Shown piece after piece: positions 24,866 to 49,842 of a stretch of 64,000 bases of DNA. The number at the start of each line of letters is the position of its first letter. Position 1 is the stretch's first letter. The DNA is from Candidatus Beckwithbacteria bacterium (lineage in GTDB: Bacteria > Patescibacteriota > Microgenomatia > UBA1400 > UBA1449), in contig JAAZOH010000040.1 of the NCBI GenBank assembly GCA_012797845.1, positions 57,072 to 121,071 of the forward strand, in the 5' to 3' direction. The notes under the pieces were generated by a model, which did no database searches, was not told the DNA's origin, and was given only the letters and a program-made list of their open reading frames with translations. The translations under genes were made by a program, and so were the position numbers.

Positions 24866-25855
24866 TTATAATATCCTACCACTTCCAGTTAAGATAATAA
24901 TTAAAGCTACCATTACAAATAAAGATAAGTGCACAAAACTTTTTCCGGTTCTTCGGATGGTGCCCCGATGCCAAATCAAAATTCCATCAATTACCAAAAC
25001 AACGATAATAATGAGTGTCAGAGCCAGATTAACGCTTTTAGTCAGATCAAATGAGGAAAACGCAGGAATATGATCTAAACTAACTGATTCAAGTAATGTT
25101 TCCGGGAACAAAGTTTTGATTTGCGTATTTGCTGGTTCTTGTTGTTTGACTTCTTTGATATCTTCTACCACTTCATCAACTGGTTCCGCCACAGCAACAA
25201 CCGGTTCTTCAGTAATGGGTTTAACTTGAGGTTCAATTTGTACCCCCTGTACAGATTCAGCAGCTGCCTGTTCAGGGATAGCAGCAACTGCTGTTGATGG
25301 TGCTCCAAAGTGCTGAACCACTAAAGTCGTTTCCTGGCCATTTAAGAGTCCATTAACTACTGCTACTCCAATTTGGGTATAACGACCAGACATAATATTA
25401 TCTTTATGGGTTTGAGATTCCATCCAAGCTGCCACCACAGCTCCGGAGTCATTAAAATCTCGGGCTAAGTTTTCTCCAGCATACAGATAGGTATAGCCAG
25501 CTTGCTTAAAAAAAGACCAAGGACTAGTTCCATCAGGGGCTGTGTGGGCCCAATAATTATTGGCAAACATATGAGCTGCTTTATACCTGGCCGAAGTAGC
25601 TAATGTTTCATTAAATTCTAGGGCTGGCAAACCAGCTTCAGCTCGTTTCTGATTGGTCATTGAAACAATATCACCCACAGAAATATTTGAGGCATATCCT
25701 AAAACCCCAGGTTTAACTTGAGAAATCCCAGAAATTAAAAGCTGGAAAAAAAGAATCAGTAAAACTAGTTTAGAAAGCGATTTATGGTGAAGAATTTTAG
25801 CACGATGATTATTGCCGTGATGAGGAAAAAACAAATTATGTAGATGCCGCTTCAT
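24866..25855 (-). CDS. CAP/SCP/PR1-like (YkwD-type) domain protein with signal peptide and C-terminal membrane anchor.
   Basis: NYWAHTAPDG...YLYAGENLARDFN...AAWMESQTHKDNIMSGRYTQIGVAV carries the CAP domain signatures. A hydrophobic C-terminus is present. Confidence 0.7.
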   Translation of the reverse strand: MKRHLHNLFFPHHGNNHRAKILHHKSLSKLVLLILFFQLLISGISQVKPGVLGYASNISVGDIVSMTNQKRAEAGLPALEFNETLATSARYKAAHMFANNYWAHTAPDGTSPWSFFKQAGYTYLYAGENLARDFNDSGAVVAAWMESQTHKDNIMSGRYTQIGVAVVNGLLNGQETTLVVQHFGAPSTAVAAIPEQAAAESVQGVQIEPQVKPITEEPVVAVAEPVDEVVEDIKEVKQQEPANTQIKTLFPETLLESVSLDHIPAFSSFDLTKSVNLALTLIIIVVLVIDGILIWHRGTIRRTGKSFVHLSLFVMVALIIILTGSGRIL

Positions 25856-25929
25856 ATCAAACCATTATGAAACTATCAGATTATTTCGTCAATTAGAAAA
25901 GTGTGAAAATAAGAAAGTAAAGAAAATAT

Positions 25930-27385
25930 ATGTCGGACCGTCGTATTGTATTGCTTCTCTTTTTTTGTGTTGTTGCTTAAAAAAGAGTCGACGGCCCGAC
26001 TAAGGTAAACAATCAGCCCGATGTTTTGGGCTGATTGAGAATTATCTTTCTAGAACACACTCAGGGAGTATGCTCTAGTTTTCACAACTGGGGTTTGGGT
26101 CCCAGTTGAGAATTGTTTTACTCGGGGTGTGAAAGGGCCGAACTTCCCCGAGTTTTTTCAACAGCTGGGTTGAGTGGACAACCCAACTGAAAATTGTTGG
26201 AGCCCGCCATTGGGCTCCGGAACGCACGACTCTGTGCGTTCAAATAACCTCCCCTTTTTCGGGCATTGTAGTTGGCAACTTCGCCAACCAAAACCCTAAG
26301 AGGTAGGTCATTTTCTTTTTTTTATTTTTTATTGCTGTTGTTTTTCAAAAACCATCATAGCCCCTACGGCTAGGTTTTTGTTAACAACTCTGCCCCCATC
26401 GGACAGCCCAAAAATTCTCAAGAAGAATTCCGGGATTTTACTATCCAAAAAAATCAATAGCAAAATCCCAGAATCCTTACTGTTTACCATATTGTAAAGA
26501 GCCAATTACCACTTTCTAAACTAAAGCTAGTTTTCAGTTGAAAATGATAAATTTGGAAAAGTGAATTTTACTACTTAAAAAGCAAAAAATCAAGACATTA
26601 AAAGAAGAAGGTGAAACTAAAAGAAGTAAATAATATGCCCCAAAACGCGAAACAAGACACCTTCATCTACCTTTCTACTTAACGTAGAAACAACAGGATA
26701 GAATTGGGTGTCTTGTAAAAGACAATGAAACGAAGTCCACGAGGGCTGCAGGGTGTTGCAAAATCTGGTCAATAAGACCTGCAGCCCTCAGCGGACACTT
26801 AGGAAAAGGAGAAGGGTTTCGTCGCGATATTCTGCGACGGGGGTCCAAAGTCAGCCAAGAGACAGCTGACCCGAAAACCCTTCCCTCAAAGGACGGGGTG
26901 GTTCTTCCGGGCGACAGTACAGCAATGATTTCGGGGACCCCTCCCGAAATCCAGAAAATGAACGAAAATACCTTGAGGCGAGCCAGCCTCTCCAGTAACA
27001 AGCTCGCCTCGCCGAGATCTACTTTCCCTCTCCCCAGGGAAATGCAAGCAGGTCTCGGTATTAAAGACCTTTTTCGACCCAACCCAATCGCACTGGGTTG
27101 AGTTGTCCAGATCACCCCCATGTGGGCACATCTCTAAGGGGGGTTCCCTGGACACAACAGGTGCCCAATCATTGAAGGCTAAGTTTCTAGCCATCGATTG
27201 GGCGTTTTTACCGAACTTTTCCTTTCCGGGAGAATTGTCTCCCAGACTTTCAATAAGCTCAGGCAAGCCTATTCTTGCCTGAGTACGACTAAAATAATTC
27301 CACCCGGCAACCTGTGGGACGTCTTGGGTTGCCGGGCTGCGGTGCGCCTGTTGAGGGTGGCGAGGAATGTGAAAGTTTACCATCT
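25930..27385. ncRNA. GC-rich, hairpin-dense non-coding island. Candidate large structured RNA of unassigned family and unknown strand.
   Basis: Base composition rises sharply relative to the flanks. There is no credible ORF, only mutually overlapping garbage ORFs on both strands. Dozens of perfect or near-perfect stems are visible. Examples: gtcggaccgtcg/cgacggcccgac at 25932/25988; gggctgcagg/cctgcagccc at 26743/26778; caagacacc/ggtgtcttg at 26653/26707; a three-way junction at 26811-26883; cccggcaacc/ggttgccggg at 27303/27326. Confidence 0.35.
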
Positions 27386-27636
27386 AATAATTACATGGCA
27401 CACTATCACACTCCTCTTATTTTTCATTCATATTCATATTTCTCCTTTTCCTTATTTCATTGTTAAAGGGCATTAGTCATAAAAAATAAAAAAACCGCTC
27501 TTGGTTTATTATTTTTAACTGACTAATATTATGAGCTATATTATTCAATAAATTATTATTTTGTCAAGAAACATCTTGTATATTAGAGATCTTTATACTT
27601 GTCAAAGGGAATTAAATCTGCAAAGATAATTATGAG

Positions 27637-28269
27637 ATGAATGAATCAGTTAATCCCCAAACTCAAGCCAATACCAATAAAGAGGATAATCTTGTCTACA
27701 ACCCCTATACTCACAAAATGTTTACTAAAAATGCCGCTGCCATGGCTGGGTTTGAGGTTTCTTTGGATAAAGCCGCAGATTTGAAATTACCACTTTTTTG
27801 GGATAATGGCGTAATTTTTGGCTCTAAAGAAATGGTTGAGCAAAGAAAAGTCGCCACTTTACCAGGAACGGTAAATAAAGGAGCCTGTATTCACTATGAA
27901 GATATAGCCGGAAAAACAACTTATGCTGCTATTACTGAACCCTGGCTTTTTGCTAAATATAAGGGTATTTATTTGCGACCGGTTTCAGCTTTAGAAGTAC
28001 CCATTCTTTTTGGTAAACATTCTGTTTTTAAAACCTACGAAATTCGTGATAGCAATTTTATACCTTTAGATAAAGCTATTATTAAAGATAAAATTGATAT
28101 TCCAAAACAGTTTAAAAATCCGGTTTTACAGAAAATTTTTGCTGGTTATACCAAAATAAAAACTAAAGGTAAAAATTCAAAATTCTTTACTGCTGACACT
28201 ATCTTGTGGGTTTATTTTGTGCTGATTATGTCGCTTTTGACAGCTTTAATTATTCGGTTTTACAAATAA
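27637..28269 (+). CDS. Hypothetical protein with C-terminal TM anchor.
   Basis: 210 aa with a hydrophobic tail (ILWVYFVLIMSLLTALIIRFYK). No family was recognised. Confidence 0.3.
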   Translation: MNESVNPQTQANTNKEDNLVYNPYTHKMFTKNAAAMAGFEVSLDKAADLKLPLFWDNGVIFGSKEMVEQRKVATLPGTVNKGACIHYEDIAGKTTYAAITEPWLFAKYKGIYLRPVSALEVPILFGKHSVFKTYEIRDSNFIPLDKAIIKDKIDIPKQFKNPVLQKIFAGYTKIKTKGKNSKFFTADTILWVYFVLIMSLLTALIIRFYK

Positions 28270-45231: not shown

Positions 45232-48200
45232 TTAGGCTTTTATAATCTCAATAAGTTTTTGACTGCTTTTATCCCAACTAAACTGCCCAGCCCATTTCTG
45301 AGCTTCTTGCTCCATTCTGGTCCTCAGTTTTTTCTTAGTCAAAAGCTGGGTAATTTTCTGAGCAAAAGCACCGCTATCACCATGAGGAACTAAGTAACCG
45401 GTATGGGGATTAGAAACGGAATCCCGCAAGCCAGGGACATTGGCCGCCACTACTGGGGTACCACAAGCATTGGCTTCAATGACCGAGATACCCCACCCCT
45501 CCATTGAAGACGGATAAGCAAAAACCCAAGACTCTGTTAGGAGTTTGTATTTAGCTTCTTCACTAACTTTACCTACAAAAGAAACAGTGTCTTGCAAATG
45601 AAGTTTTTTAACCAGTTTTTTGAGCTGTTTTTTATGCTCTCCAAAACCGGCAATAGTTAGCTTTGCTTTAGGCTGTTTTTGTTTAATCTCTACCATCGCT
45701 TCAATAAGTGTATCTATTGATTTATATGCTTTTAATCGGCCCAAATACAGGATTGATGGGTAGGAAGTTTTTTTGCTATTTTTGGGACTGCAAACTGTCA
45801 CCCCTGGATTGATAATGGCAATTTGATGTTTTTTGCCCAGACCAATTTTGATCATGTCTTTTTTAGAAGACTCGGACACCGTGATCATTTCCACATTACG
45901 ATACACCCAAGGCATCAGTTGGCTTTCTAAAAAGGTAGCTAGCATGGCTGAAAAGGGGTTGAGGTTTTTACGAAAAACTTCTTGATGCACATGATGAACT
46001 AAGCCAACAATCGGTTCTTTGGCATACAGTGGCGTAAAAAAGGGAATGCCATTTTCACCGTCAATAATCACATCATATTTACCTTTAAACCGAAATAGGT
46101 AGTAAAAGAATGCCCAAATGTAGACAGTATAAAAACCACCCCGCCTGACAATATGGACACCGTCAATGGTTTCAAACTTAGGATTGTGGTGATCATTACC
46201 ACAAAAAACTGTCACTGTGTGGCCTTTTTCCACCAACTGTTTGGCAATTTCATGGACATAAACCTCAGCTCCCCCAGCCCAAATATGCTTGGTATCACGC
46301 CAGTTAAAAATCAAAATCTTATAGCTATCAAGCTTCTTTTTTTCTGGAGCAGGAACAGATAAAAACAGCCCTAAAAAATCAGTGATATTTCCCCAAATAG
46401 TCGGCAAGGCATCAGCAAAAATATGCAGAAAAGCCATGGCTGACAAATTGGCCAATCCCACAATAGCCATTACCCAAACAATTTGACTCACACTACTATG
46501 AAACAAAACAATGCCAAAAATTTGCACCAAGGCAAACATAAAATTGACAGTTGGGAAAAGGTGCTTATTCCTAGCCTGATGGAAGGTGGCAATAATATTG
46601 GCCACCGTGAAGTAAAAGATAGCAATGCCGTAAATTGGCAAAAGTCCAACTACCGGAACTATTTTACTACCCAAGAGTAATGGTGTGGTGTATTTACCCA
46701 ACAGACCAACAAATAGGTAGGCTAATAAACTTACTCCACTGGAAAGATAAAAAAGCTTATAAAAAATTGGTTTACTGGCTTTACTCTCCCCCTCAGCTTT
46801 ACTCACAATCGGTAAAACAAACTGGCTAAACAGGCTGCCAATCATGTAAATCATTTTGCCCACCAAAGCTACTAGGGCATAGTGACCAGCGTCACTAGGT
46901 GAAAGATAATGTTTGGCTAAAATTACGTCAAAGCTCAAAAAAGCTACAGATGAAAATTTCAATAAAACTGAACTTGAGAAAAATTTAACTGGAAATTTGT
47001 ATAAAGCCGGGCTTTGTTCAATGTGCTTCTCCTTAGTTTTTTTGGCTGCATACCACCCAACTAGAAACGAAACAGCCATAGATAAGGGAATCGCCATATA
47101 AACCCAATGCTCAAAACCAAGTTGAACTAATAACACGGTGAAGACTAATTTACTGGTAGCTTCAGCTGCAACCATAAAAGCTAAAGTTTTAAATTGTAAA
47201 ATTCCAGACAAATAACCACTATCAACTGCTGCTACCGTGCCAATAAACCAAATTGGGGTAAATAGTATAAACGGGATGACACTTGAGGAATTAAAGTAAT
47301 GACTGAGAAAAGGCGTAGTTAATAACCACAGAGCCGTCAAAGCTAAACCGATATAAACTACCTTGCTACGAATGTGAGCCCAGTAGCTTTTGATAGCCGT
47401 TTGATACTTACCAAAATAGTAGGCACTTTTATTGGTAATAGTCCGGGATAAACCGCTTAGAGGAATAGCAGATAAAAACAGGAAGTTGCCCATCAGGCTC
47501 ACTAAACCAAAACTTTCCAAAGAAATAGTTCTAGATAGATAGGCGTTATAGAGAAAATTCAGCACATTACCCAACATGGAGGCAGCCACTAAAATCCCAC
47601 CCGATACCGCATCAGTGCTTATTAAAAATCCAAATCTGCGGCCAATAAAACTTTGCCTATCAACTGATTCAACTTGCTGTTCCGCTTGAGCCTCGGCCTG
47701 TTCCTGTTGCTGTCCTAAATGCAAACCGTGAATGGTTTTTTCCCAGTAGTACGGTTTGACTATAAACTGCCATAGGGCTTTTACTGCCGCTAGGCTTACC
47801 ATCAACCAGTACACAGGAATCAAAAAGACAAATTTGACCAGTTGCCACTGTTCTCGCTTGGCACAGCCAATCATGTAATAGTAGATAAATAAGAAATTAC
47901 CAAAAATCAGTGAAGTCATAGCCATGTAAAAAATTGAGGCCGGATAGAGGGATTCGATAGTCGGACCAACGATGGCGTAGAGCGAAAAGTAAGCAATTGT
48001 TGCTAACCATAAAATCGGATTAATGAGCATGAAAGCAATTTTGCCCCCCACTACCAATTGAAAAATAAAAGCATGCCAACTCTGATTTTTGACAAACTGA
48101 ACCGGGTGACGCATGTGAACAAAGTAAGTTTGGATATAGCCTTTAATCCATCGGGATCGTTGCCTAAACCAATTGCCTACTTTACTATTAGCCTCCTCAA

Positions 48201-49842
48201 GAGTTGTCGAATCAATCATGGCAGTTTTAAAACCTTCTTTAAAAAGCCTTACGCCCAAGTCACAATCTTCAGTCACATTGAAAGCATCCCAACCCTGCAG
48301 CTTTTGCAATTCTTGAGTACGGAAATGGTTGCTGGTACCGCCAAGGGGAATAGTGGTATCTATTGACTGCAAACCGGACAAGGTAATATCAAACCAAAGC
48401 GAATATTCGGCTGTAAACAGCCTGGTGAGAATATTTTGCTCAGGATTGTAGTAGTTAAGTTTGGCCTGCAAACACTTGACGTCATCCGAAGCTTTATTAA
48501 AAGCAAGATAGGCTTTTTTAAGCTGCAATGGATCAGGTTGGTCTTCTGCATCATAGATAACCAAAAATTCACCAATAGCCTGCTTAAGACCATAATTACA
48601 AGCTTTGGGTTTTGTTTTAGGTTGGGAATGAGGGACAACAATAATTCTGACATAATCAGGCAAATTTAGTTTCTCGGCAGCTTCAATCGTAACCCTGTCA
48701 TCCTCTTCCAAAAGCAACTGGACATCAAGTTTATCCTTGGGCCAATCAAGCTTAGCAATTGATTTCAAAAAGTGTGGCAAAACATGAGCTTCTTTGTATA
48801 GCGGACAAAGAATGGTGTAGATGGGTAAAAGCTCTGGTTTTAAAGCTTGAATTTCTGCTTGGCTAACTGAAATTTCTGGCGGGAAATGGAGACTTTTTAA
48901 AATTAAATAGAGATTAAATAAAACATCAATAAAATAGATTGAGCTTAAAATCGCAACCACTACTTTTAATGTCTGAATAGGATTTAGGCATATGCCCACA
49001 GCCACTGAAGCCAAAATTAGAAATATAGTCAATTTTTGCCAATGCTTCAAGCTTGTAATAGCTGATTGATGTAATTCTAACTGTGTATGAGTAGTAAACC
49101 GTCTCCGTTTATAGCCAATTACACCCTCTTTATTTTGATCAATATACAAAGGCTTGACGTGATGAAGACGCTGCCAAATCGACAAGCTTAGTAGTTCAAA
49201 ACTGGCTGAAAATAACTTTGATTTCCGGTTACCGTGTTGGCGTCCATGATAAGGTACTTCCACAGTTCCAATACTAAAACCTGCCTCAACGCTCCTACGG
49301 ACAAATTCTAGATCAAAGCTCCAATTCCCTGGCTTAATTTCAATATGATCAATAATTTTCTTTTTAAAAACTTTAATACCGGATTGAATATCAACCTGTA
49401 GATTAAATAGTAATGTACCAAAAATAAATTTATACAAAGAAGCTAGTAGCTTTTTACCAACCCGCTGTTTGTTTTGATATTTCCTACTACCTATAACTAA
49501 ATCATATTGCTTTATGCTTTCAGCTAGTTCTGGAATTATTTCGGGAGGATACGCTAAATCAGCGTCAATAAAACCAATAGTCTGGTATTTGGCAGCCTTA
49601 ATTCCCACCCAAACAGCTTTACCTTTCCCAGAAGATTCTTTCCTAGTTATTATTTTAAAAGGATATTCCTTATTAAGATTTTTCAAAACTTTTAAACTTT
49701 TATCGGTTGAATGATCATTGACAACAATAATTTCGAAATGCCTAAAATTTTTTTGAAGAGTTTCCAACAACCTGGGGATTAAAACAGGAAGACTTTCCTG
49801 CTCATTTTTTACTGGAATGATAATACTAATCGAAGCTAGCAT
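45232..49842 (-). CDS. Giant 1536-aa multidomain glycan synthase fusion. Domain order: GT2 (DPM1-like), processive GT2 synthase (QxxRW), polytopic Wzx/MOP-like membrane domain, then GT4.
   Basis: N-terminal SIIIPVKNEQE...VVNDHSTD (first GT2). Central IYDAEDQPD...TEDCDLG...QRSRWIKG (cellulose-synthase-like D,D,D,QxxRW). Residues ~aa 600-1100 are hydrophobic and helix-rich. The C-terminus LTESWVFAYPSSMEGWGISVIEANACGTPVVA carries the GT4 EX7E motif. Confidence 0.7.
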   Translation of the reverse strand: MLASISIIIPVKNEQESLPVLIPRLLETLQKNFRHFEIIVVNDHSTDKSLKVLKNLNKEYPFKIITRKESSGKGKAVWVGIKAAKYQTIGFIDADLAYPPEIIPELAESIKQYDLVIGSRKYQNKQRVGKKLLASLYKFIFGTLLFNLQVDIQSGIKVFKKKIIDHIEIKPGNWSFDLEFVRRSVEAGFSIGTVEVPYHGRQHGNRKSKLFSASFELLSLSIWQRLHHVKPLYIDQNKEGVIGYKRRRFTTHTQLELHQSAITSLKHWQKLTIFLILASVAVGICLNPIQTLKVVVAILSSIYFIDVLFNLYLILKSLHFPPEISVSQAEIQALKPELLPIYTILCPLYKEAHVLPHFLKSIAKLDWPKDKLDVQLLLEEDDRVTIEAAEKLNLPDYVRIIVVPHSQPKTKPKACNYGLKQAIGEFLVIYDAEDQPDPLQLKKAYLAFNKASDDVKCLQAKLNYYNPEQNILTRLFTAEYSLWFDITLSGLQSIDTTIPLGGTSNHFRTQELQKLQGWDAFNVTEDCDLGVRLFKEGFKTAMIDSTTLEEANSKVGNWFRQRSRWIKGYIQTYFVHMRHPVQFVKNQSWHAFIFQLVVGGKIAFMLINPILWLATIAYFSLYAIVGPTIESLYPASIFYMAMTSLIFGNFLFIYYYMIGCAKREQWQLVKFVFLIPVYWLMVSLAAVKALWQFIVKPYYWEKTIHGLHLGQQQEQAEAQAEQQVESVDRQSFIGRRFGFLISTDAVSGGILVAASMLGNVLNFLYNAYLSRTISLESFGLVSLMGNFLFLSAIPLSGLSRTITNKSAYYFGKYQTAIKSYWAHIRSKVVYIGLALTALWLLTTPFLSHYFNSSSVIPFILFTPIWFIGTVAAVDSGYLSGILQFKTLAFMVAAEATSKLVFTVLLVQLGFEHWVYMAIPLSMAVSFLVGWYAAKKTKEKHIEQSPALYKFPVKFFSSSVLLKFSSVAFLSFDVILAKHYLSPSDAGHYALVALVGKMIYMIGSLFSQFVLPIVSKAEGESKASKPIFYKLFYLSSGVSLLAYLFVGLLGKYTTPLLLGSKIVPVVGLLPIYGIAIFYFTVANIIATFHQARNKHLFPTVNFMFALVQIFGIVLFHSSVSQIVWVMAIVGLANLSAMAFLHIFADALPTIWGNITDFLGLFLSVPAPEKKKLDSYKILIFNWRDTKHIWAGGAEVYVHEIAKQLVEKGHTVTVFCGNDHHNPKFETIDGVHIVRRGGFYTVYIWAFFYYLFRFKGKYDVIIDGENGIPFFTPLYAKEPIVGLVHHVHQEVFRKNLNPFSAMLATFLESQLMPWVYRNVEMITVSESSKKDMIKIGLGKKHQIAIINPGVTVCSPKNSKKTSYPSILYLGRLKAYKSIDTLIEAMVEIKQKQPKAKLTIAGFGEHKKQLKKLVKKLHLQDTVSFVGKVSEEAKYKLLTESWVFAYPSSMEGWGISVIEANACGTPVVAANVPGLRDSVSNPHTGYLVPHGDSGAFAQKITQLLTKKKLRTRMEQEAQKWAGQFSWDKSSQKLIEIIKA

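Follow-up and report, generated by a model that had tools for sequence, protein, structure and literature searches.

A contig of the uncultured bacterium Candidatus Beckwithbacteria, a member of the candidate phyla radiation (CPR; Patescibacteria) known from one sequencing run, ERR1876141 of study PRJEB19890 on a digester community, carries an island of ~1.5 kb (~25980-27535) that is dense in hairpins, rich in GC and poor in open reading frames (ORFs). We give about an even chance to the reading that this island is the gene for a long, untranslated and highly structured RNA, transcribed from the minus strand and carrying a triplicated hairpin-linker module in its 3' domain. Positions are those of the window, by which is meant the whole 64-kb stretch of DNA analyzed. 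Such an RNA would extend from a promoter equipped with a boxA-like element to a terminator at 25980; a split near 26650, giving two transcripts, is possible. The island is best described as a candidate large structured RNA, unclassified and known from a single CPR genome: striking statistically, not yet a discovery.

The island lies within the only large non-coding gap of the window (25856-27636, ~1.8 kb), in which genes are packed densely and chiefly serve the cell envelope and glycosylation. The GC content of this gap reaches 0.43-0.58 in two blocks, 26000-26300 and 26700-27400, as compared to ~0.37 for the window. In AT-rich genomes, long GC-rich intergenic regions are a classic signature for finding structured RNAs (PMC6429828). 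An earlier, sequence-only reading had flagged ~240 nt (26009-26250), the last fifth of the island in minus-strand reading, as an array of hairpin units inside a GC island. The elevated GC was borne out (0.43-0.54 in the flagged context); the picture of an isolated array was not, as hairpins run on for another 1.3 kb.

All seven hairpins that had been described in the flagged stretch are present in the sequence:

26010-26037: unit 1, CAATCAGCCC/GGGCTGATTG, 10 bp, perfect
26050-26078: unit 1, CTAGAACA../..TGCTCTAG, 13 bp with two G.U pairs on the minus strand
26085-26108: unit 2, CAACTGGG/CCCAGTTG, 8 bp, perfect
26120/26121-26153: unit 2, CTCGGGG/CCCCGAG, 8 bp, 18-nt loop
26162/26163-26189: unit 3, CAGCTGGGTTG/CAACCCAACTG, one C.A mismatch on the plus strand, 11 bp including one G.U pair on the minus strand
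26199-26218: unit 3, GGAGCCC/GGGCTCC
26220-26241: unit 3, GAACGCAC/GTGCGTTC

Four of these have perfect stems of at least 8 bp (26010-26037, 26085-26108, 26120-26153 and 26220-26241), and the others are shorter or near-perfect (26050-26078, 26163-26189 and 26199-26218). The linkers reported between them are likewise in place, with GAGAATTAT at 26037, GAGAATTGT at 26108 and GAAAATTGT at 26189, spaced by 71 and 81 nt; a fourth copy of the linker box lies at 27230. Across the window the box is not enriched, GARAATTRT occurring 9 times against 6.2 expected. Four of these nine matches fall inside the island (1.4 kb in this count), all on the same strand.

Read on the minus strand, the three units share a single order: a variable hairpin; the linker, (A)AACAAUUCUC; a hairpin that opens C-A-A/G-Y (CAAYYRG); and an A-rich tail resembling GUUGAAAA. 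In the direction of reading, they are:

26154-26241, minus strand: unit 3, with hairpins 26220-26241 and 26199-26218, linker AACAAUUUUC (26189-26198), hairpin 26162-26189 and tail GUUGAAAAA
26079-26153, minus strand: unit 2, with hairpin 26120-26153, linker UAAAACAAUUCUC (26108-26120), hairpin 26085-26108 and tail GUGAAAA
26002-26078, minus strand: unit 1, with hairpin 26050-26078, linker AAAGAUAAUUCUC (26038-26049), hairpin 26010-26037 and tail GUUUACCUU

The earlier description of three tandem ~80-nt units thus holds as a local triplication, but a very degenerate one in which Tandem Repeats Finder detects no array. In a three-way alignment, 63% of columns are identical, and what can be aligned is the linker with its adjoining hairpin; on the minus strand, the segment of linker, hairpin and A-rich tail aligns in all three units. 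Within this alignment every one of the eight aligned base pairs is retained in the three copies, five of them altered on both sides, a result equaled by 6 of 500 shuffles, and sliding the register leaves only 14-54% pairing. Units 2 and 3 are clear paralogues (CAACTGGG/CCCAGTTG as compared to CAGCTGGG/CCCAACTG), their stems differing by one A-T to G-C swap and by one change that keeps pairing, as G.U, on the minus strand only. The compensatory change previously proposed for the stems in general therefore stands for one hairpin per unit, among three paralogues only. It does not extend to the second hairpins (26050-26078, 26121-26153 and 26199-26218), which have neither alignable sequence nor a common length. 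A covariance model of the linker-to-tail segment scores 46-50 bits on the three units and 14 bits on the next best match in the window.

A modular, repeated hairpin-linker structure accordingly exists, and it is more than a simple terminator. A stem is followed directly by a U-run at 26001-25986, with CUUUUUU on the minus strand, and loosely at 26121-26153, where TTTTTT on the plus strand follows a hairpin with an 18-nt loop. As the other ~24 hairpins lack U-runs, the array is not, taken together, a series of terminators.

Comparison with shuffled controls, which the sequence-only reading had named as a check, confirms that the flagged region folds unusually well. The segment 26000-26300 reaches -122.7 kcal/mol on the plus strand and -138.1 kcal/mol on the minus strand (z = -7.5 and -10.0), and none of 100 shuffles is as good. 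The z-scores of units 1, 2 and 3 are -5.3, -1.8 and -5.9 on the plus strand and -9.0, -3.5 and -6.8 on the minus strand; those of the second GC block are -12.4 and -14.1, respectively. In total, the island contains ~26 strong hairpins (dG -8 or better). Perfect GC-rich stems of at least 8 bp number 8 per 1.5 kb here, as compared to a maximum of 3 in 201 unrelated loci (1.6 Mb), and no comparable cluster of hairpins is found elsewhere in the window.

The density of hairpins is accompanied by a partial strand bias. With pairs limited to 150 nt, the local fold of 25980-27535 reaches -592 kcal/mol with 43 G.U pairs on the minus strand, as compared to -517 kcal/mol with 26 such pairs on the plus strand. 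Nineteen of the 26 hairpins are better on the minus strand and six on the plus strand (sign test p = 0.015, Wilcoxon p = 0.002), and every segment tested has its better z-score on the minus strand. In the flagged region, two mismatches of the plus strand turn into G.U pairs on the minus strand, so that the RNA strand is probably the one opposite to that originally read. An example is 26050-26078, where the 13-bp stem of the minus strand has -16.8 kcal/mol as compared to -8.2 kcal/mol on the plus strand.

The same strand carries a series of putative transcription signals. A promoter scan of 25700-27800 returned 12 sites against 3.6 expected, 10 of them on the minus strand. In the direction of the proposed transcription, the elements are:

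27540-27567, minus strand: promoter-like site P1, TTGACA, 16 nt, AATAAT; 11 of 12 consensus positions, the best-scoring site in 25700-27800
27471-27528, minus strand: AT-rich 5' hairpin directly before the boxA-like element, -17.3 kcal/mol
27459-27472, minus strand: boxA-like element UGCCCUUUAACAAU, ~60 nt past the start predicted for P1
26489-26634, minus strand: AT-rich spacer between the GC blocks, with weaker promoter-like sites at 26593-26565 and 26520-26491
25979-26001, minus strand: terminator-like end, hairpin AGUCGGGCCGUCGACU (26001-25986) followed by CUUUUUU, stem -5.6 kcal/mol
25864-25907, minus strand: promoter-like sites of the downstream CAP-domain gene, TTCACA-16-AATAAT and TTGACG-17-CATAAT, 10 of 12 consensus matches

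From the consensus match, transcription at P1 is predicted to start near 27533. A further terminator-like hairpin (26716-26652, minus strand, with tail UUUCGCGUUUUGG) lies just before the AT-rich spacer. A 13-nt near-duplicate, TTGACRAAATAAT on the minus strand, occurs at 25880-25892 and 27555-27567, in the -35 region of the promoter-like sites of both the CAP gene and the island; it may reflect chance or a small promoter duplication.

In ribosomal RNA operons, boxA recruits NusB/NusE and other Nus factors and shields long untranslated transcripts from Rho termination; the transcripts so protected include rRNA and many CRISPR arrays (PMC7665894). Here, a boxA-like sequence close to UGCUCUUUAACAA is present on the putatively transcribed strand as UGCCCUUUAACAAU, which is identical at 13 of 14 positions to the boxA plus spacer of E. 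coli rrn operons, UGCUCUUUAACAAU (PMC2724277). The match is unique in the window at up to one mismatch (0.05 expected) and absent from 204 other loci (1.6 Mb). It stands shortly after the promoter predicted by consensus, beside a stem-loop and before ~1.45 kb that contain no credible ORFs. The island therefore resembles the E. coli rrn leader in having promoter, stem-loop and UGCCCUUUAACAAU in the same order, followed by what would be a long, untranslated and highly structured transcript, and the hairpin at 27471-27528 has a relative position like that of boxB in rrn leaders. It differs from an rrn leader in that it contains no rRNA or CRISPR array, with no Rfam match to small-subunit rRNA, large-subunit rRNA or CRISPR models. 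Nus binding and antitermination at this element are predictions from sequence. Scanning of ORFs on the contig revealed neither an rRNA operon nor a nus gene.

Two further features lie near or resemble this element. A second, weak boxA-like core, UGCUUUUUAA, at 26575-26584 (minus strand) in the AT-rich spacer recalls the second boxA of rRNA spacers; statistically, it is unremarkable. Just downstream of the boxA-like element, 27417-27445 (minus strand) reads as a Shine-Dalgarno-like GGAG, 4 nt and a 6-codon mini-ORF (AUG AAU AUG AAU GAA AAA UAA), and the same purine tract (27452-27440) is the 5' arm of a predicted 13-bp long-range helix.

This helix belongs to a long-range architecture suggested by modeling. 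When pairing distance is left unrestricted, the minus-strand RNA is predicted to adopt a minimum-energy fold (-639.7 kcal/mol) with two closed domains:

26635-27473, minus strand: GC-rich block 2, predicted domain A, ~15 hairpins
26004-26488, minus strand: predicted domain B, with a long hairpin (26423-26478), the three units and UUGAGAAUU (26413-26421)

In domain A, the 5' strand beside boxA is predicted to pair with four downstream segments through nested closing helices (27473-67/26641-35, 27463-54/26731-22, 27452-40/26813-01 and 27431-21/26968-58), of which 27452-40/26813-01 would be 13 bp long and entirely Watson-Crick. Such pairing of a boxA-adjacent segment hundreds of nucleotides downstream is, in the model, like that of rRNA processing stems. 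Domain B, which contains further hairpins at 26390-26406, 26358-26372 and 26272-26289, would be closed by 26488-79/26013-04 and by pairing of 26421-13 (UUGAGAAUU) with the unit-1 linker (26043-35). In the modeled ensemble, the closing helices have pair probabilities of 0.80-0.97 in domain A and 0.63-0.84 in domain B, and the linkers of units 2 and 3 are ~70% unpaired. Long-range pairs involve 60 bases, as compared to 7-40 in 36 linker-shuffled controls, and a Watson-Crick helix of at least 13 bp occurs in 1 of 100 shuffles. The closed domains are prediction only, and their controls are mixed.

Coding signal is absent from the island. Its two longest ORFs (165 and 148 aa) lack the GC1 > GC2 > GC3 pattern of the host, and neither hits a family in Pfam, PHROGs or PADLOC. 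Comparison of the 165-aa ORF with 1.84 billion representative proteins revealed no credible homologue, only the ORF itself and one weak match (E 7e-8) in which a 24-residue stretch is matched 20 times in a 1,452-aa protein; we judge this match to be a low-complexity repeat, without having inspected the protein. A recoded ORF was rejected, as read-through of TGA, TAG or TAA gives at most 237 nonsense-looking codons. A pseudogene was rejected as well, since tblastn of the relatives' upstream genes against the gap gave nothing significant (best 21 residues, E 0.006). Known RNA families are also absent: the 4,227 covariance models of Rfam 15 have no match at gathering thresholds in the whole window, and a permissive search (E up to 10) of three slices returned only generic microRNA-type hairpins at 14-25 bits, as compared to thresholds of 37-200. 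No tRNA or transfer-messenger RNA genes were found.

Together, these features suggest how the island could be expressed. RNA polymerase would initiate at the near-consensus promoter 27567-27540 and would next transcribe the 5' hairpin and the boxA-like element (27472-27459), which may recruit NusB/NusE and other Nus factors, as in rRNA operons and CRISPR arrays. The Nus factors could make the untranslated transcript resist premature (Rho-type) termination while it folds co-transcriptionally into ~26 mostly local hairpins, grouped by the model into two domains closed by long-range helices. Transcription would stop at the hairpin and U-run 26001-25979, just upstream of the CAP-gene promoter. In this mechanism the three units, each of variable hairpin, linker AACAAUUCUC, CAAYYRG hairpin and A-rich tail, would be a locally triplicated module in the 3' part of a lineage-specific ~1.5-kb non-coding RNA gene, and their stable hairpins would keep the conserved linkers single-stranded as docking sites. 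The best candidate for a linker partner is the exactly complementary UUGAGAAUU at 26421-26413 in the same RNA; alternatively, the partner could be a protein.

The genes that flank the gap allow the locus to be compared with that of related genomes:

24866-25855, minus strand: CAP-domain membrane protein gene, flanking the gap; first gene of a conserved block CAP / 90-aa / NTP-transferase / ... / RarA
27637-28269, plus strand: orphan gene of 210 aa with a C-terminal membrane helix, divergent from P1

CAP orthologues 55-62% identical were compared from seven related genomes (ten loci), in which the downstream block is kept and the island is absent. There, a same-strand gene lies 22-411 nt upstream of CAP, and the longest of these gaps, of 411 nt, shows no structure (z = +0.4). 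As the relatives have an upstream gene abutting CAP, the ~1.8-kb gap and the orphan gene together are a lineage-specific block of 2.4 kb. The 2,430 bp of island and orphan gene are base-for-base identical in two independent assemblies of the same run. The 210-aa protein matches only itself among 5.8 billion proteins and nothing in the JGI metagenome and IMG/VR search; PADLOC gives no match and PHROGs one weak match (E 0.013) to a family of unknown function. In its AlphaFold model the C-terminal membrane helix is confident and the remainder is poor (pLDDT 41) and uninformative. Its predicted promoter (27515-27544, plus strand) overlaps back-to-back with that of the island (27567-27540, minus strand).

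Searches for the island elsewhere were uniformly negative, and the units, for which the sequence-only reading had looked to covariation in related genomes, are missing there with the whole island. By blastn there is no trace of it in the relatives' loci, no copy in the window outside the gap (the other matches being two of the gap's own hairpins) and none in phages and plasmids. The unit covariance model has no match in the relatives' 89 kb, scans of JGI metagenomes and IMG/VR with confirmation by tblastn returned none, and the specific linker-plus-hairpin pattern has 0 matches in these two collections. A two-linker pattern gave more than 120 chance matches in IMG/VR, none of them hairpin-rich. 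GTDB genomes were searched by motif pattern only; the three-linker pattern gave 74 matches and did not recover the source genome, which is therefore not in the GTDB set. The two best-folding GTDB matches and one multi-match locus were inspected, and proved to be two tandem repeats and one CRISPR array with the motif in its repeat. The remainder were dropped on folding energy alone (-0.36 kcal/nt or weaker, as compared to -0.42 to -0.46 here).

These three loci are of some interest in themselves. In the first (L172, 1393-1660, on Candidatus Uhrbacteria contig CALRBH010000005.1), at least three near-identical ~60-nt tandem repeats abut a tRNA-Val gene (1316-1392), each starting with the first ~16 nt of the tRNA (GGACGCTTAGCTCAGC) and continuing into GC-rich hairpins; it was picked up only through TTGAAAATTAT and resembles a repeated partial duplication of the tRNA 5' end. 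In the second (L168, 3290-3560, on uncultured bacterium contig CAYOOD010000018.1), three intergenic ~90-nt tandem units include GGATTGAAAATTATCGG together with GC-rich palindromes; the units are for the most part near-identical to one another, and their sequence is unrelated to the island. The multi-match locus (L139, 1339-3681) is a CRISPR array in which ~31 repeats recur every 66 nt; the 36-nt repeat, GTTTGAGAATTGTGTAAATTAATAGGATAGTTAAAC, happens to start with the linker motif. In two further loci, L201 and L196, the pattern matches are likewise ~197 nt apart, and these loci are presumably arrays of the same sort, the three being on Monoglobus and Intestinimonas contigs. CRISPR arrays thus account for several of the three-linker GTDB matches and are unrelated to the island.

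Several results weigh against a long structured RNA. The island is missing from the seven relatives; the lineage can dispense with it, and it may be foreign DNA of recent arrival. The organism has been seen in a single sample. With no homologue, there is no evidence of conservation or covariation beyond the three internal paralogues, a very small sample. Transcription of the island is inferred. The 10-nt boxA core alone is unremarkable (10 matches in the window, 12 expected); because the longer match was spotted only after the fact and is judged by the E. coli sequence rather than a CPR consensus, it is graded as supportive, not conclusive. The stem of the terminator, at -5.6 kcal/mol, is weak. 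For the full-length fold, the energy is no better than that of linker-shuffled controls (-641.5 +/- 5.4), long-range helices that tolerate G.U are common in shuffles, and nested-chain scores saturate there too. The seven hairpins of the flagged region split into three better on the minus strand, three on the plus strand and one equal, and the GC of paired as compared to unpaired positions is the same as in shuffles.

Some of these observations would also be expected of a non-functional relic: higher-GC foreign DNA, possibly left over from a mobile element or phage, that entered along with the orphan gene and whose hairpins stem from the donor context and are unused by the cell. This explanation is unlikely, though it deserves real weight. 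It would account for a lineage-specific block where seven relatives have a same-strand gene abutting CAP, for a GC content 15-20 points above that of the host, for the adjoining orphan gene and for the lack of any homologue, and the paired versus unpaired GC test shows no sign of long-term selection. Against this, mobile-element boundaries were sought and rejected, as there are no direct or inverted (terminal) repeats and no target-site duplication, and no integrase, transposase, phage or cas gene appears in the Pfam listing of 10 kb on each side and 30 further ORFs. No donor emerged from the phage, plasmid, IMG/VR and JGI searches, and the codon-position GC of the orphan gene is already host-like. 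Further, the stems are still perfect despite the strong AT pressure of the genome, and a host-type promoter, boxA-like element and terminator are arranged coherently on the best-folding strand.

The same signals could instead belong to a long structured 5' leader, in which transcription driven by the promoter and boxA passes through the whole island and its weak terminator into the CAP / rmlA-like / rarA operon. This would restore expression of the operon after the insertion separated it from upstream genes, the hairpins being passengers or modulators. The island is on the same strand as the conserved CAP operon and directly upstream of it, CAP in the relatives is co-oriented with and abutted by an upstream gene, which suggests co-transcription, the terminator stem has just -5.6 kcal/mol, and boxA elements occur in mRNA leaders as well. 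We nonetheless consider a leader improbable: CAP has its own promoter-like sites (10 of 12 consensus, 25907-25864), the hairpin and U6 fall exactly between these and the island, and a hairpin-dense leader of 1.6 kb has no obvious rationale.

A function at the level of DNA has a slim chance. Repeated TTGAGAATTGT boxes and hairpins could be protein-binding or recombination sites (iteron-like, a single-strand origin or cruciforms), given three direct copies of an 11-nt box with 71- and 81-bp spacing beside an AT-rich stretch, and perfect palindromes can extrude from either strand. However, G.U on one strand is A.C on the other, an asymmetry that argues for single-stranded RNA; the window contains no copies of the repeat elsewhere, and no replication, relaxase or recombinase gene lies nearby. 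A chromosomal origin (oriC) was specifically rejected, as the gap has no DnaA boxes and no GC-skew switch.

Marginally slimmer still is the chance that the plus strand is functional and encodes three tandem small RNAs, each with a 5' hairpin, an A/U-rich seed (GAGAAUUGUUUUA) and a terminator-like hairpin with U-runs. TTTT and TTTTTT do follow the second hairpins of units 1 and 2, respectively, and three of the seven hairpins are slightly better on this strand. Yet unit 3 has no U-run, the unit-2 "terminator" has its 18-nt loop, the z-scores of all three units are poorer on the plus strand, 25700-27500 has no promoter-like site on that strand, and no room is left for promoters between units.

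A degenerate or orphan CRISPR-like array (~40-nt repeats ending in GUUGAAAAAAC or GUGAAAAC, spacers of ~31-33 nt, boxA upstream) would fit the period of 71-81 nt, the hairpins followed by a ...GAAAAC tail and the known occurrence of boxA upstream of CRISPR arrays (PMC7665894), but is effectively refuted by lack of repeat identity: the repeats are ~60-70% alike with differing stems, the "spacers" are themselves perfect hairpins, the units have no Rfam CRISPR-DR match, the other 1.3 kb of hairpins has no repeat structure, and the window ORFs scanned contain no cas genes. Likewise, a CRISPR array in the strict sense (at least three near-identical repeats of 23-47 nt) is seen neither by Tandem Repeats Finder nor by a repeat finder, the units sharing 63% of columns. 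PADLOC scans of the genes neighboring the gap found no cas system, which alone would not be decisive because orphan arrays exist.

Among characterized RNAs, a long structured RNA at this locus would resemble in kind the large, ornate families OLE, GOLLD, ROOL, raiA and HEARO. Common to both are a size class of 0.6-1.5 kb, GC above the genome background, many helices, no coding signal, unknown function and a tie to variable or accessory genome regions. The island differs in that it matches none of them in sequence or structure (Rfam 15), has no homologue in any collection, and is a single-genome orphan, whereas what defines those families is that they are conserved and covary in many genomes. 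Moreover, its helices are mostly simple perfect hairpins with 6-8-nt loops, as compared to the intricate junctions of the ornate families.

The units, with a short conserved single-stranded motif repeated between stable hairpins, also recall the sponge RNAs CsrB/RsmZ (GGA) and CrcZ (A-rich). Unlike these, they have three copies only, their motif is AACAAUUCUC as opposed to GGA or AANAANAA, and no motif is common to the loops of the seven hairpins. The CsrB, RsmZ and CrcZ models of Rfam have no match, CrcZ reaching E = 0.58 (14 bits, threshold 95) on an A-run outside the units. With the ToxI antitoxin of type III systems, the island has in common tandem RNA units, a terminator and a gene on one strand, but its units are degenerate and ~75-90 nt long where those of ToxI are near-identical and ~36 nt, and the downstream gene encodes a conserved CAP-domain membrane protein, not ToxN/AbiQ, with no PADLOC match.

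Two classes of DNA element find no support. For integron attC sites or integrase-less attC clusters (CALIN; RYYYAAC...GTTRRRY), the stems are perfect rather than imperfect with extrahelical bases, and there is no integrase; AAC...GTT occurs in unit 2 only, and the 3' core GTTGAGA ends in A, not Y. Repetitive extragenic palindromes (REP), bacterial interspersed mosaic elements (BIME) and miniature inverted-repeat transposable elements (MITE) would be dispersed, and there are no such copies in the 64 kb of this genome that were covered, none in 89 kb of the relatives, and no boundary repeats.

The rest of the window encodes many glycosyltransferases, among them one multi-domain protein of 1,536 aa (45232-49842), together with dTDP-sugar enzymes, a sortase, LTD-domain and Peptidase_M73-like surface proteins, FtsEX and a release factor.

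The genomes of CPR bacteria are tiny and densely coding, and in the literature searched no large non-coding RNA was found described for them beyond introns. For both reasons, a retained non-coding gap of 1.8 kb is notable. A more ambitious proposal is that the island represents a new class of large RNA in CPR bacteria: a two-domain, hairpin-dense, non-ribosomal RNA of ~1.5 kb, made from an rRNA-style unit (strong promoter, boxB-like hairpin and boxA/Nus antitermination), provided in its 3' domain with the triplicated module for docking an RNA segment or a protein, accessory and strain-specific, and possibly mobile with a small membrane protein. This we regard as speculative and, on present evidence, unlikely. 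The value of the island at present is that of a concrete, testable lead and not of a finding, coming as it does from a single genome without comparative support. If transcribed as proposed, the island would be a rare case of a non-ribosomal, non-CRISPR RNA made with boxA-type antitermination, and it would be a convenient system in which to study how CPR bacteria keep long untranslated RNAs from being terminated.

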